Assembly: GCA_963701085.1 (NCBI GenBank)
Contig: OY969561.1
Coordinates: 288,001 to 352,000, forward strand
Direction: 5' to 3'
Length of the DNA: 64,000 nt
Source of the DNA: an uncultured bacterium
GTDB taxonomy: Bacteria; Babelota; Babeliae; Babelales; Vermiphilaceae
How positions within the stretch are numbered: position 1 is the first letter of the stretch; the number at the start of each line of letters is the position of its first letter. The notes under the pieces were generated by a model. It was not told where the DNA came from and made no database searches. It saw only the letters and a list, made by a program, of their open reading frames with translations. Shown in pieces: positions 40 to 62,001 of the stretch. The position numbers and the translations under genes are program-made.

Positions 40-179
40 CCGCTCGCCCTGAGTGTTTTTGCAAAGCAAAAATGTATCGAAGGGTTAAGCGGAAAACTAA
101 TAATTACAAACCGTTGTTATATTGCACCCTTCGATACATTCTACTACGTTTCACTTCGTAGAACACTCAGGGCGAGCGG
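40..179. repeat. Family A REP-like inverted doublet (arms 40-84 and 127-179)
   Basis: ccgctcgccctgagtg-[ttttgcaaagcaaaa]-atgtatcgaaggg, then inverted arm cccttcgatacat-[tctactacgtttcacttcgtaga]-acactcagggcgagcgg. Confidence 0.9.
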
Positions 180-218
180 ATTAAATAATCAAATTTTAAT
201 TTTAGGTTAAGCGCTTAT

Positions 219-932
219 TTAACCCAAATTCGTATATACGTTTTTTACGTCATCATGATCTTGTACTTCTGATAAAAATTCAAGAACCTTATCCGCTTTT
301 GCTTCAGGTAATTCTACCGTGCTTTTTGCAACCCACTCAAGAGCGGAGCTTTCAATTTTTAAGCCTGCTTTTTCAAGAGCGTTTTTGACTGATTCAAGAG
401 ATTTAATATCGCAATAGATTGTGATATTGTTTTCATCAATTTGAATGTCTTTAATATCGTAATCCATGAGCAGTTCAAGGAGTTCATCTTCAGTTTTTTT
501 ACCAATAGCATTGATAGCGCCCAGTTTTTCAAACATCCAGCCAACTGTTCCTGATTCACCGAGTGTACCGCCATTTTCAGAAAAAAGACGACGGAATTCT
601 GCAATGGTACGGTTTTTATTATCAGTGATTGCTTCCACCATAACGGCGATACCGTTTGGACCATATCCTTCATAGGTATATTCTTCGTAACATTGACCAG
701 GAAGCTCACCGGTTCCTTTTTTGATTGCGCGCATTGCGTTTTCGATAGGCATGTTTGCTTCTCTGCCTTTTTCCATAAGAAGTCGCAATCGAGGATTCAT
801 ATCAGGATTACCGCCACTTTCACGGGCCGCTATCGTAATTTCTTTAATAATTTTGGTATAAACTTTAGACTTTTTACTGTCTTCTTTGGCTTTTTTATGT
901 TTAATATTAGCCCATTTACTATGACCTGCCAT
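219..932 (-). CDS. yebC: YebC/PmpR family protein
   Basis: MAGHSKWANIKHKK N-terminus; YEGYGPNG and TDNKNRT motifs. Confidence 0.97.
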   Translation of the reverse strand: MAGHSKWANIKHKKAKEDSKKSKVYTKIIKEITIAARESGGNPDMNPRLRLLMEKGREANMPIENAMRAIKKGTGELPGQCYEEYTYEGYGPNGIAVMVEAITDNKNRTIAEFRRLFSENGGTLGESGTVGWMFEKLGAINAIGKKTEDELLELLMDYDIKDIQIDENNITIYCDIKSLESVKNALEKAGLKIESSALEWVAKSTVELPEAKADKVLEFLSEVQDHDDVKNVYTNLG

Positions 933-999
933 GGCTTTTGTGGCTCCCGATTTATTCTAGTGTAAGATATGATTTATTTTTATTTTAACGCTAATATTT

Positions 1000-2016
1000 T
1001 TATCTGTCTAATACGCTTGTTTGCCCCAAAAATCTTTTAATCAAATGCGGCAGCATTTGTTGAGGTATTTGTCTTCCGCGGGAGGTGCGCTCCAGGTATC
1101 CTTTGCGTAATAAATATGGCTCATATGCCATTTCAATAGTATCAGCATCTTCACCAACCAGTGATGCAAGCGTATCAAGGCCAACGGGGCCACCATTAAA
1201 ATTACAAACAATTTTTTGTAAAATCATGGTATCAACAGCAGTAAGGCCATCATTATCGATGCCTAAAAATGCAAGTGATTGTTCAACAAAATCTTTATCT
1301 ACGTGTGGGTTGTTGCGTACTTGTGCCAAATCTCGTACACGTCTAATGAGTTTTTTTGCAATACGTGGTGTTCCGCGTGAGCATGCACCAATCATCAGTG
1401 CAGCATCGGAAGAGATTGATAGATTCAGGAATTGCGCACTTTGTAAAACAATATCACGCAGTTCGTTATCATTATAAAAATCGAGCCGTTCAATAATACC
1501 AAAGCGGCTGCGCAGTGGTGCAGAAATGATACCACTTTTTGTTGTTGCGCCAACAAGCGTGAATGGGTGTATGGGCAAGCTCACTGATTTTGCTCCAGCT
1601 CCTTGACCAATGATCACGTCTATACGGTACTGTTCCATGGCGCTGTATAACACTTCTTCCACACTTGCAGGAAGGCGGTGAATTTCATCAATAAAAAAAA
1701 TATCACGTGGTTGCAGGCTGGAGAGCATGCCAACCAAATCTCCCGTGCGTTCTATCATGGGGCCGCTGCATAATTTAATGCCGACATTCATAACTTGTGC
1801 CATGATCATGGAAAGTGTTGTTTTACCAAGGCCTGGAGGGCCAAATAACAGTAAATGATCTAGTGGCTCATTTCGCATTTTTGCCGCTTGCGTGTAGATG
1901 GAAAGTTTTTCTTTGAGTTCTTTTTGTCCAATGTAATCATCAAATTTTTGGGGAGAAAAATCATGGGCACGTTCTTCTGGTGCTTGCCCTAAATCAAGAA
2001 CGAGTGGGGTTTTCAT
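1000..2016 (-). CDS. ruvB: Holliday junction branch migration helicase RuvB
   Basis: GPPGLGKTT, FIDEIHRL, GATT, LRSRFG, SRGTPR and EPYL..GY.ERTSRGR motifs. Confidence 0.97.
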   Translation of the reverse strand: MKTPLVLDLGQAPEERAHDFSPQKFDDYIGQKELKEKLSIYTQAAKMRNEPLDHLLLFGPPGLGKTTLSMIMAQVMNVGIKLCSGPMIERTGDLVGMLSSLQPRDIFFIDEIHRLPASVEEVLYSAMEQYRIDVIIGQGAGAKSVSLPIHPFTLVGATTKSGIISAPLRSRFGIIERLDFYNDNELRDIVLQSAQFLNLSISSDAALMIGACSRGTPRIAKKLIRRVRDLAQVRNNPHVDKDFVEQSLAFLGIDNDGLTAVDTMILQKIVCNFNGGPVGLDTLASLVGEDADTIEMAYEPYLLRKGYLERTSRGRQIPQQMLPHLIKRFLGQTSVLDR

Positions 2017-2105
2017 GGTATTATCTTTTGATTACATTGTTTATTGACTTAATAGTAACATTTTTTTATACCAGTAAAGTATAAGTGATTTAATTAAGGA
2101 AAAAA

Positions 2106-59909: not shown

Positions 59910-60144
59910 AATCCATTACTCCTCGATTTAGCTGTTAATTTATTTATAAAAAAGTTACTAATAATACAAATTTAGCATTTTTTTTTGATTCTGTGAATTT
60001 TTTTGGCCTTAAAATGGCTGTTTTTGGCCGTTTTTGATGAAATAAATGCTAAGTCTGGCAAATTTAAATATGATTTTATTAAAAACATTGCAATTTGAAA
60101 ATTTTAAATGATATGATGAGGGTAGGAAAAACAAAGGTTAAAAA

Positions 60145-61245
60145 ATGATTTTATTAATGGGGGAGGAAGCAATGTTTCCGCTCAAAAAGGCTGAAAGTTT
60201 ATCAATGAGACGTATACAAGGGCGCATTGTTATTATTTTGTCTATTTTTCTTCAGGTTCCTGCTCTTTGGGGGGCTATGATAGATGGTTTTCATGGCCAT
60301 GTTGTCCCGGAAAAGACTAAAATAGCCAACGGAACGATTGTTGAGCACGTTGTTCTGTATCCGCAAGAGGCGCATGATTCATCTAATCGAATTGCTCGCC
60401 ACGGTATTTTAGCTCGTAACGATGGGGCTAAGGCAACAATTTTAGTATGTCATGGATTTATGTGTGATAAATATGATGTGGGTATGTTGAGAAGGATATT
60501 TAAAAAAAGCCACTTTAATGTAATGACATTTGATTTTCGTGCGCATGGACAAGATGGTAATGGGCAATATTGTACGTTTGGCCGTGATGAATCTTTAGAT
60601 GTAATTGCCGCAGCAAAATTCTTGCGCAATCATTCAGAGTTGGAAGGGATGCCACTTTATGCATATGGTTTTTCCATGGGGGCAGTTTCTGCCATAGAAG
60701 CGCAGTCTTTATGCTCAGATTTATTTGATGCAATGATATTAGATTGTCCTTTTGATTCTAGTGAGCGAGTTATTAAAACTGGTCTTGAGGGGTTAAAATG
60801 CTCAATTTTTGGTTATGAGTTTGATGCACCTGGTAAAGATCTATTGCAAAAATATGCATTTCATCCCTATGTTCAAGCGTTGGTTAAAGCCGTGTTAAAA
60901 ACAGTTTCGCAGATGGATGCTACCGGTGTTAATACCAATTTTTGTCCGTTATATCCCGCTGAATCGGTTAAAAAAATAGTTGTTCCTGTGTTTTTTATTC
61001 ATTGTAAAAATGATCAAAAAGTTTCTGTTGAGCAAGTTAAACGTGTGTATGATGGTGCTGCTGGTTATAAACGGTTATGGTTAACCAATGGTCGTCGTCA
61101 TTACGATTCATTTTTTTATAATCCTGAAAAATACACTGAGCAGGTACGTCAGTTTTATAATCAGGTTACTAATGGTGATATACAAGGAATGCCGCAAGAA
61201 GGAATTGTTGAAGATGATGAAGAAGATGATCATCTGTTTGGATAA
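60145..61245 (+). CDS. Alpha/beta hydrolase
   Basis: VCHGF, FDFRAHG, nucleophile motif GFSMG, and IHCKND. Confidence 0.88.
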   Translation: MILLMGEEAMFPLKKAESLSMRRIQGRIVIILSIFLQVPALWGAMIDGFHGHVVPEKTKIANGTIVEHVVLYPQEAHDSSNRIARHGILARNDGAKATILVCHGFMCDKYDVGMLRRIFKKSHFNVMTFDFRAHGQDGNGQYCTFGRDESLDVIAAAKFLRNHSELEGMPLYAYGFSMGAVSAIEAQSLCSDLFDAMILDCPFDSSERVIKTGLEGLKCSIFGYEFDAPGKDLLQKYAFHPYVQALVKAVLKTVSQMDATGVNTNFCPLYPAESVKKIVVPVFFIHCKNDQKVSVEQVKRVYDGAAGYKRLWLTNGRRHYDSFFYNPEKYTEQVRQFYNQVTNGDIQGMPQEGIVEDDEEDDHLFG

Positions 61246-61277
61246 AAGTAATTATATAAAAAAAGGGAGGATTGGGA

Positions 61278-61862
61278 ATGGAAAAGTATAGTAATAAATT
61301 GATGATGTTGACGATTGTGTGTCTGCTATTTATCGGTGGCGTATCACATACAAAAGTAAGAACGGTTACGGGGCGTAGAGATTTGGAGCGGAGTATAGCA
61401 AAAGAAAGTAAGGTAGTTGTGTTGTTTTATGATGATAGGGATAAGGATCTTGCGCGGATGTATGAAGATGTGAGTGCTATACAACGCTATGATGATGCAG
61501 ACGTTATTTTTCTTAAGGTAAATGCAGCACGTAAAGAGTTGCGTGACTTGGCTCAACTCTATGGTGTTACCGCAATGCCAGCATTTATATTTTTCAGTAA
61601 AGGTAAGCGTCTTGTTAATAATAAGGTTGCACCAGGTGTTGTTATGGGCGCACCGGCTATGCTAACGGGTTCTGTTTCTCGCGATAGATTGCAATCGTTT
61701 ATAGACGAATATTATGGTGTGGAAATTGAGCAGTATATTGCAAAAAAAGATGCAAGAAATAAGCAGCGATTAGTGCAAGAAAAAGAAAGCTGGAAACCTT
61801 ATTTTTATCCACGCGATATATTTGTCCGCAGTTACGGTCCAGAGGAACGTGACTTGGAATAA
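61278..61862 (+). CDS. Thioredoxin-fold exported protein lacking CxxC
   Basis: VVVLFY, FLKVNA and YGVTAMPAFIFF motifs; no CxxC. Confidence 0.75.
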   Translation: MEKYSNKLMMLTIVCLLFIGGVSHTKVRTVTGRRDLERSIAKESKVVVLFYDDRDKDLARMYEDVSAIQRYDDADVIFLKVNAARKELRDLAQLYGVTAMPAFIFFSKGKRLVNNKVAPGVVMGAPAMLTGSVSRDRLQSFIDEYYGVEIEQYIAKKDARNKQRLVQEKESWKPYFYPRDIFVRSYGPEERDLE

Positions 61863-61865
61863 TAA

Positions 61866-62001
61866 TCCTTCGATACATTTTTGAAGACAAAAACACTCAG
61901 GATGAATGGAAGAAATTTTCTCCGCTCGCTTGCCCCATCTCCAGCCTCTTTCGATGGGGACCCCGATTGAAACGAAGTAAAAATTGGGGAAAAAGGGTGC
62001 A
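61866..62001. repeat. Family A doublet; right arm carries two nested hairpins
   Basis: tccttcgataca..ctcaggatgaatgg followed by ccgctcgcttg-ccccatc..gatgggg-a-ccccgatt..aattgggg-aaaaagggtgca. Confidence 0.88.

Follow-up and report, generated by a model that had tools for sequence, protein, structure and literature searches.

Short repeats with fixed ends and an exchangeable centre, which we call family A arms, are scattered through a stretch of 64,000 nucleotides (nt) from an uncultured bacterium of the Vermiphilaceae (contig OY969561.1, positions 288,001 to 352,000; referred to as the window). Two of these arms, inverted and with their tags outward, enclose a gene encoding a small GIY-YIG nuclease (51150-51440, minus strand), and this linkage of gene and arms holds across genomes and phyla. 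We lean towards regarding the family A arms as a local, divergent form of a class of hairpin repeats that is partnered with single-domain GIY-YIG ('Ssn-like') nucleases.

The source genome, G000, belongs to the Dependentiae (Babeliales) and is a single contig of 1.198 Mb with a completeness of 92.6%, in which the window corresponds to C1:288001-352000. The G+C content is about 37%, and the MutS protein has 84% identity to that of the best relatives. Two genomes of the same genus in which the gene order of G000 is kept, G007 and G005, were used for the comparison of orthologous sites, and 41 genomes were included at the level of the order; G012 and G001, mentioned below, are among the related genomes. 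Arms with a centre of 5 nt are designated S arms and arms with an apical hairpin as centre H arms, while B and C denote nested hairpin modules.

The left end of the arms, CGCTCRYCCTGA, was found 25 times in the window with up to one mismatch, whereas 100 dinucleotide-preserving shuffles contained it 0.27 times on average and never more than twice. The whole genome of G000 contains 211 exact copies and none of the motif read backwards, which served as control. The motif is present in nine of the ten other genomes of the genus, with up to about 190 copies, and with at least one match in 29 of the 41 genomes of the order, being rare or not found in most of those outside the genus. Genome-wide, 256 left ends with at most one mismatch were counted as arms in G000, and 235 of these are complete, having the right end TYGAAGGR within 130 nt. 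The complete arms comprise 130 S arms, 68 H arms with hairpin centres of 18-37 nt, and composites as the remainder. S arms carry either the centre ACTTG together with TTGAAGGR or GCCTG together with TCGAAGGR, and the centre of H arms has the form GTG-hairpin-TGTA.

Only 74 of the 256 left ends lie wholly within crude open reading frames (ORFs), though these make up 86% of G000. H arms prefer the 3' sides of genes: 62 arms with H or B-type tips outside ORFs are distributed over convergent (23), tandem (36) and divergent (3) intergenic regions, compared to 100, 419 and 139 among all 658 intergenic regions of the genome. S arms occur alone (40 cases) or as doublets, which are arranged tail-to-tail in 30 cases and head-to-head in one. 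The sequence AGCGC follows the S arm in 114 of 130 cases. An outer stem CCGC/GCGG was seen in only 17 of 72 H arms and was not taken as a defining feature. Doublets and mosaic clusters show alternating orientation and conserved linkers; a linker of about 21 nt, conserved between copies (50993-51020 and 51072-51094), joins arm heads. In one of these two linker copies there is a palindrome, ATTATAAT, that looks like a -10 promoter box whichever way it is read.

A nuclease gene between inverted arms

The gene at 51150-51440 lies inside the span covered by an earlier reading made from the sequence alone, which did not mention it. It encodes a single-domain protein of 96 amino acids (aa) matching Pfam PF01541 over residues 5-75 (E 1.6e-17), with an additional weak match to T5orf172; this protein is probably the partner of the arms. 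In the alignment of homologues the catalytic-type residues Y7, Y17, G19, R27, H31 and E64 are conserved; no NCBIfam model matches the protein. On its 3' side the gene is accompanied by an H arm on the plus strand (51094-51136, tip TTTTTGC-tt-GCAAAAA) and on its 5' side by an H arm on the minus strand (51484-51526) with a nearly identical tip. The first of these arms is preceded by a cluster of alternating orientation (50909-51072) containing the minus-strand arms 50909-50951, 50953-50993 and 51032-51072 and, at 51020 on the plus strand, a mere left end; the second is followed by a plus-strand H arm with a B-type tip (51606-51658). Contigs from four DNA sequencing runs over 49500-52700 were short and of low depth, with few joints, carrying letters from other arm copies.

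G000 has six GIY-YIG matches, five of which are small genes. Four of these five lie between inverted arms with outward tags, the window gene being enclosed by H arms and the other three by S arms. A homologue of the window nuclease exists in 22 of the 41 genomes of the order. Typed by pattern, the 22 homologue loci have arms on both sides in 19 cases, on one side in two and on neither in one; for all 41 typed loci the respective numbers are 27, 6 and 8. The two arms of one gene often have the same tip (L091, L094, L111) and sometimes different ones (L090, L092). On the protein tree the arm type (H or S) is clustered, with 7 changes compared to 17.4 after shuffling (0 of 200 shuffles). G012 contains three copies of the motif, two of them being the flanks of its GIY-YIG gene, and G001 contains neither motif nor gene.

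With a profile built from 11 homologues at least 554 relatives were obtained; 80 loci were kept and 78 scanned. They belong to Sphingobium, Herbaspirillum, Gallionella, Methylococcales, Nitrospirota, Chloroflexota, Cyanobacteria and others. A hairpin of the type N4-GA-loop-GA-N4', mostly behind a CCGTTCG tag, was present in 64 of the 78 loci and was inverted on both sides of the gene in 40. A GTCAT-tagged form of this mini hairpin accompanies homologues from the Candidate Phyla Radiation, Bacteroidota and Gammaproteobacteria. Homologues in Sphingobium and Sphingomonas are 50-60% identical to the window nuclease. Three loci from Chloroflexota metagenome-assembled genomes (L126, L127 and L132; G+C-rich Dehalococcoidia) encode homologues with 57-61% identity and carry arms that are almost the same as S arms (CCGCTCA-YCCTGA-GCTTG-TCGAAGG..GAGCGG). 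This similarity hints at a transfer of gene and arms between phyla.

Fold, exchangeable tips and turnover of the arms

Read on the tagged strand, an arm consists of the tag CGCTC(R), a helix of four base pairs (bp; YCCT/AGGR), GA facing GA, a closing R-Y pair, and a loop or an apical hairpin. The facing GA steps are invariant tandem G.A/A.G mismatches. Position 7 and the last base are paired in 223 of the 235 complete arms (T-A 123, C-G 100), the others having a T-G wobble (7) or a C-A mismatch (5). Within G000 the helix also occurs as TTCT/AGAA (six times) and TACT/AGTA (once). The pair closing the loop is kept in all 130 S arms (A-T 101, G-C 29).

The sequence-only reading had suggested that the structure is under selection and that covariation among all copies would be a suitable check. 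We aligned 61 distinct arms of the S type, taken from the window and from all loci retrieved and chosen by their invariant letters only in order to avoid circularity; in reversed sequences this selection gave 4. In the alignment 95.4% of the cells were paired compared to 77.6% after shuffling, a value reached by none of 500 shuffles, and controls with slid positions gave 29.5-73.8%. In all five tested pairs both partners vary, and doubly changed cells number 55 compared to 16.4 in shuffled alignments, which supports the suggestion. The helix variants are CCCT/AGGG, TCCT/AGGA, TTCT/AGAA, TGCT/AGCA, TGGT/ACCA, TGTT/AACA and TCCC/GGGA, and GA..GA is unchanged in all of them.

The hairpin centres of H arms show at least five consecutive end pairs in 66 of 68 cases (mean 6.4 compared to 0.74 after shuffling), formed by 24 distinct stems, which bears out the earlier statement that the stems keep pairing while their sequence changes. 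At the base of these hairpins a wobble with G on the 5' and T on the 3' side was observed 59 times and the opposite one (T5'-G3') only twice, indicating that one strand is the folded strand; the G.A pairs, too, exist on one strand only. DNA folds of H arms contain the tag-stem, the helix and the tip, and for an H arm beside the nuclease gene DNA folding yielded -8.6 kcal/mol for the tagged strand and -5.6 kcal/mol for the complement. The arms of S+S- doublets differ at compensated positions, so each arm keeps its own hairpin while the complementarity from arm to arm drops. This applies e.g. for the 72-nt doublet at 23551-23622, whose arms differ at such positions only.

A scan of the window at the Rfam gathering score returned four tRNAs only. 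Permissive scans of 50850-51700 (E<=10) and of ten loci of other groups, seven of them outside the Dependentiae (E<=0.1), gave sub-threshold hairpin look-alikes only. A kink-turn consists of a canonical stem, a 3-nt bulge, tandem G.A/A.G pairs and a non-canonical stem. We set this reading of the GA motif aside, as S arms have no 3-nt bulge; H arms can be drawn in this way (GUG/UGU, an AUC bulge, then GA).

All the centres listed in the sequence-only reading are in place. This applies for the B-type tips of the plus-strand arms 12594-12645, 47886-47938 and 51606-51658, the cccc-gtca-gggg tip of the minus-strand arm 57120-57158, A/T stems (e.g. 41-84) and acttg and gcctg as minimal centres. Both cases of tandem hairpins (20584-20672 and 61922-62000) are real as well, but their ends are fixed only in part: CGCTCG and the 3' AAGG(A/G) alone remain there and the CCTGA half is missing. 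Slippage from one ancestral sequence, named beforehand as an explanation that would overturn the reading, cannot account for tips that differ as much as CCCC/GGGG, TTTTTGC/GCAAAAA and the B unit do.

A further proposal was that one hairpin inserts into another, and always at a defined position. Our data support this for the B and C modules, which also exist alone, but not for the simple A/T and CCCC/GGGG tips: no sign of insertion was found for these, and different nuclease cassettes seem to carry them as lineage variants. The B core GAAGCYTYRGCGNAG has 54 copies in G000 (control 1), of which 17 are located in arms, 22 deep in crude ORFs and 15 elsewhere. The B unit of 30 nt stands alone or within other B units, and in the C module it occupies the loop, at CGA^AG. 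Its position within S arms is always CCTG^A, in five of five such arms of G000 and again in G007. The C double hairpin, with 35 GGGGACCCC sites, stands alone and within S-type units, too. At 62299-62328 (plus strand) a B unit is inserted in frame in the gene for leucyl aminopeptidase and lengthens the protein by 10 residues, as seen in the alignment with the G005 orthologue lacking the unit. B-type hairpins are also located immediately next to tRNA genes, at their 3' ends, namely at 9560-9700 in the window (tRNA-His, 9673-9748) and at 56345, 242808 and 100381 in G000.

A second GIY-YIG subfamily of 80 aa, encoded in G000 outside the window (C1:843858-844097), is present in 24 of the 41 genomes. 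A B-like hairpin in the same orientation lies 20-60 nt upstream of the gene in 15 of 16 loci read by eye (L230-L245); no regular downstream B-like copy was found in the 16 loci inspected. The B family may have its own enzyme in this subfamily. A more far-reaching proposal, which we put forward as doubtful, is a nested ecosystem of mini hairpins in single-stranded DNA (ssDNA), with A arms and B unit each having its own lineage of single-domain GIY-YIG proteins and with the G^A step within sheared-GA motifs as the specific insertion point of B, i.e. in arm tips, B units, the C module and, in frame, genes. If this were true, small GIY-YIG nucleases would be catalysts of an undescribed, structure-targeted transposition, and the pan-bacterial CCGTTCG..CCTGA..TCGAAGG repeats missed by the published SRM pattern (see below) would be explained.

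The arms come and go between species. Among 14 arm-bearing intergenic sites of the window compared with G007 and G005, seven have an arm at the matching site of at least one of the two, five have none and two are not comparable. The arm 12594-12645 differs from its G007 orthologue by a compensatory double change (ttctac..gtagaa compared to ttctgc..gcagaa); the pair to which it belongs (12526-12645) has an orthologous pair in G007 and an empty site in G005. The arm 61922-62000 contains a C double hairpin in G000 and a simple hairpin in G005 between the same ends. The double change and this exchange of centres add to the covariation in supporting selection on structure. At 47886-48016 the H pair of G000 is replaced by an S+S- doublet in the same intergenic region of G007 and G005.

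Relation to known systems and alternative explanations

Chenal et al. (2025, PMC11893778) describe the Ssn family as single-domain GIY-YIG proteins (cd10448). The ligand of SsnA of Neisseria, a protein of 94 aa, is the NTS hairpin in its ssDNA form; cleavage takes place upstream of the hairpin and is restricted to one strand, and SsnA cuts neither double-stranded DNA nor RNA and does not bind RNA (PMC11893778). SRM repeats on both sides are given there for 42% of the Ssn homologues, and the authors liken the arrangement to insertion sequence (IS) elements and to REP/BIME-RAYT (PMC11893778). Babela massiliensis, the sole Dependentiae entry of the paper, has 0 SRM and no SsnA (PMC11893778). The supplementary tables of that paper may list homologues closer to the window nuclease.

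The system in the window shares with Ssn/SRM, the closest known system, a single-domain GIY-YIG protein of about 95 aa, a gene between inverted hairpin repeats, tens to hundreds of scattered copies, and a directional repeat with a conserved 5' tag. A Coxiellaceae homologue with 54% identity to the window nuclease (L201) has canonical SRM flanks. In contrast, the tag is CGCTC(R) or CCGTTCG here and (C)GTCA in SRM, and the stem consists of 4 bp, tandem G.A and 1 bp instead of the perfect 8-bp stem given for SRM. Furthermore, the arm loop can be a hairpin of 18-37 nt or a nested module. We do not file the window system as a proven member of Ssn but as a divergent relative.

Similarities exist with the CGTC-tagged REP superfamily, too, which includes dRS3 of Neisseria and RPE-4/-6 of Rickettsia and which Di Nocera et al. 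presented in 2013 as having no dedicated transposase (PMC3733652). Both consist of a hairpin behind an unpaired 5' tag, form dimers and clusters, lie preferentially 3' of genes and include some intragenic copies, and the loops of 4-5 nt given for the superfamily match those of S arms (PMC3733652). The CGTC REPs have, however, the tags CGTC/TGTC/CCTC and stems of 8-9 bp beginning with AT, and they are mostly arranged head-to-head (PMC3733652), whereas S arms are tail-to-tail. The arms have CGCTC(R)/CCGTTCG with an extra C, a 4-bp helix with G.A pairs and, in H arms, loops of 18-37 nt. With REP, BIME and REPIN repeats and their RAYT genes the arms have in common an enzyme gene in single or few copies flanked by hairpin repeats that fill intergenic regions, as well as the mosaic clusters; they differ in lacking the GTAG tag and in the enzyme class, GIY-YIG. 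The Y1/RAYT transposase (PF01797) had no match in G000 (92.6% complete), control genomes being positive in 6 of 14 cases.

Rickettsia palindromic elements (RPE) sit in frame in genes, and cyanobacterial small dispersed repeats nest in each other. The B unit resembles both, being in frame in the peptidase gene and nesting in B, C and A arms, but it is much shorter than RPEs. To our knowledge, a link to a GIY-YIG gene family does not form part of the descriptions of either. A literature search returned nothing relevant on palindromic repeats of Dependentiae, on GIY-YIG proteins with REP/RAYT or terminal inverted repeats, or on UPF0213/YhbQ.

In the arrangement which we favour, the two inverted arms with outward tags bracket the nuclease gene, and the approximately 250 arms, doublets and clusters without gene would be its non-autonomous relatives, as REP/BIME are to RAYT genes. 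Judging from the characterised SsnA, the nuclease would read the tag and the GA platform on ssDNA. The tip of the arm would point away from the protein and would only have to stay closed, so that compensatory drift, variation in length and nested insertions of B and C would be tolerated. Binding, cutting and spread of the arms by the enzyme we infer; the nuclease may spread the arms, merely home into them, or serve the host, e.g. by limiting recombination as proposed for Neisseria. This would supply a physical reason for the combination of fixed ends and free tip, namely that the partner protein probably reads tag and GA platform and not the apex. It would also extend the idea of Ssn nucleases and their repeats to the Dependentiae, scored as empty in the 2025 paper on one representative, Babela massiliensis, to a repeat class that is undetected by the published pattern though carried by homologous genes in many phyla, and to nested and in-frame insertions altering protein sequence. 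If specificity resides only in tag and platform, arms with swapped tips are ready substrates for studying how a protein of 96 aa recognises folded ssDNA.

Several observations weigh against the Ssn-like partnership. The published SRM pattern detects 0 arms in G000 and 1 in the reversed control, and among the 78 cross-phylum loci it detects a single one, from Coxiellaceae, which is also the positive control. The solved structures nearest to the window nuclease are UPF0213 proteins (1zg2, 1ywl). The folding energies of single arms are modest, with z values from -0.3 to -4.0. We saw neither a target-site duplication nor a cut site, nor any direct sign of movement. The match between arm type and protein clade is imperfect, and related genomes, being non-independent, share labels. 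The gene is present in only four of about 160 arm clusters of G000, and no gene of the window-nuclease subfamily was found in G005, which has 47 copies of the motif.

The last two points also count in favour of another reading, in which the repeats spread by other means and the small GIY-YIG gene is a homing-type passenger that invades doublets between the arms, using the copies as landing sites. The position of the gene is exactly between two complete arm units, at the place of the GAGCGCTC centre common to gene-less S+S- doublets, arm types switch within protein clades, and the gene of G007 is found at a different locus from that of the window. We nevertheless consider a passenger unlikely. 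In G012 two of the three motif copies flank the gene itself, the hairpin accompanies the gene across phyla, and the search for another transposase that could serve the arms gave no candidate (Y1/RAYT 0 matches; DDE families not searched). Even less can be said for the arms as ordinary miniature inverted-repeat transposable elements, i.e. double-strand terminal inverted repeats of a DDE transposon that has been lost or not recognised, with functionless hairpins. Inverted pairs with fixed outer ends and presence/absence differences between species would fit such elements, but pairing within the arms is kept by compensation even where complementarity between arms falls, the strand asymmetry is strong (59 compared to 2 wobbles) and single arms are common, with 40 lone S arms. 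As no target-site duplication was noticed in the arm flanks inspected either (DDE families not searched), we regard this origin as very improbable.

Alternatively it might be that the arms act as RNA, as terminators, stabilisers of mRNA 3' ends or sites for RNA-binding proteins, with G.A pairs as in kink-turns or loop E and with the linkage to the nuclease being secondary. G.U-type wobbles and tandem G.A pairs, both present in the arms, are typical of RNA motifs. Arms with H or B-type tips avoid divergent regions (3 of 62 compared to 139 of 658) and are frequent in convergent ones (23 of 62 compared to 100 of 658). Furthermore, 50 nt just upstream of tRNA-Arg(TCG), at 38219-38268, contain a reverse-complement mini hairpin of the arm type in a GCGCC/GGCGC stem, and this block is kept in G000, G007 and G005, unlike most arms. 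On the other hand, no bias was seen in how the arms are oriented with respect to the genes beside them, and because they occur in inverted pairs only one of two could form the GA fold in a single transcript. There was no match to an Rfam family, S arms lack the 3-nt bulge of kink-turns, and the arms are gained and lost between species; the characterised SsnA, in the passages cited, does not bind RNA (PMC11893778). A role as RNA thus appears to us to have a low probability, and the partnership with an Ssn-like nuclease is the reading we retain.

Further arms and modules along the window

The arms not yet located occur as convergent and head-to-head pairs, doublets, composites and single arms. 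Convergent pairs are located at 41-178, with an H arm on the plus strand (41-84, A/T tip) and one on the minus strand (127-178, B-type tip), and at 47886-48016, where the plus-strand H arm with the B-type tip (47886-47938) faces a minus-strand H arm with an A/T tip. Head-to-head pairs were found at 12526-12645 (H arm 12526-12570, minus strand; H arm 12594-12645, plus strand, B-type tip), at 57120-57260 (H arm 57120-57158, minus strand, CCCC/GGGG tip; H arm 57218-57260, plus strand, A/T tip), the latter pair being absent from G005, and at 61866-62000. In the last of these, a minus-strand arm (61866-61909) precedes the plus-strand arm 61922-62000, which has the C double hairpin at its centre.

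The ORF upstream of the pair at 12526-12645 ends within an arm. It is the last of four consecutive plus-strand ORFs (9904-11016, 10997-11278, 11275-11838 and 11936-12583) that match successive stretches of one region in G007 and G005, which suggests a frameshifted gene or assembly errors.

Composites of S arms and C modules are present at three positions. On the plus strand, 17906-18029 contains an S arm (17907-17931) followed by an inverted unit with the C double hairpin, and 34462-34585 contains an S arm and a C-module unit; the ends of both are approximate. The composite at 20584-20707 consists of a unit with the C double hairpin (20584-20672) and a minus-strand S arm (20682-20706). The first of these composites lies downstream of mutS. 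In G007 and G005 the interval from mutS to the next gene holds 580-900 nt of dense palindromes of the GGGGTCCCC type and others, which do not occur in the window; at 17878-18157 the S arm and the C module stand in their place.

A further S+S- doublet is located at 38009-38082. The single plus-strand S arm at 25021-25059 has the outer stem GCGCTCG/CGAGCGC; G007 has an arm at the same place and G005 has none. At 45172-45196 (plus strand) an S-type mini hairpin lies inside another direct repeat, cgtatggcaggcc.

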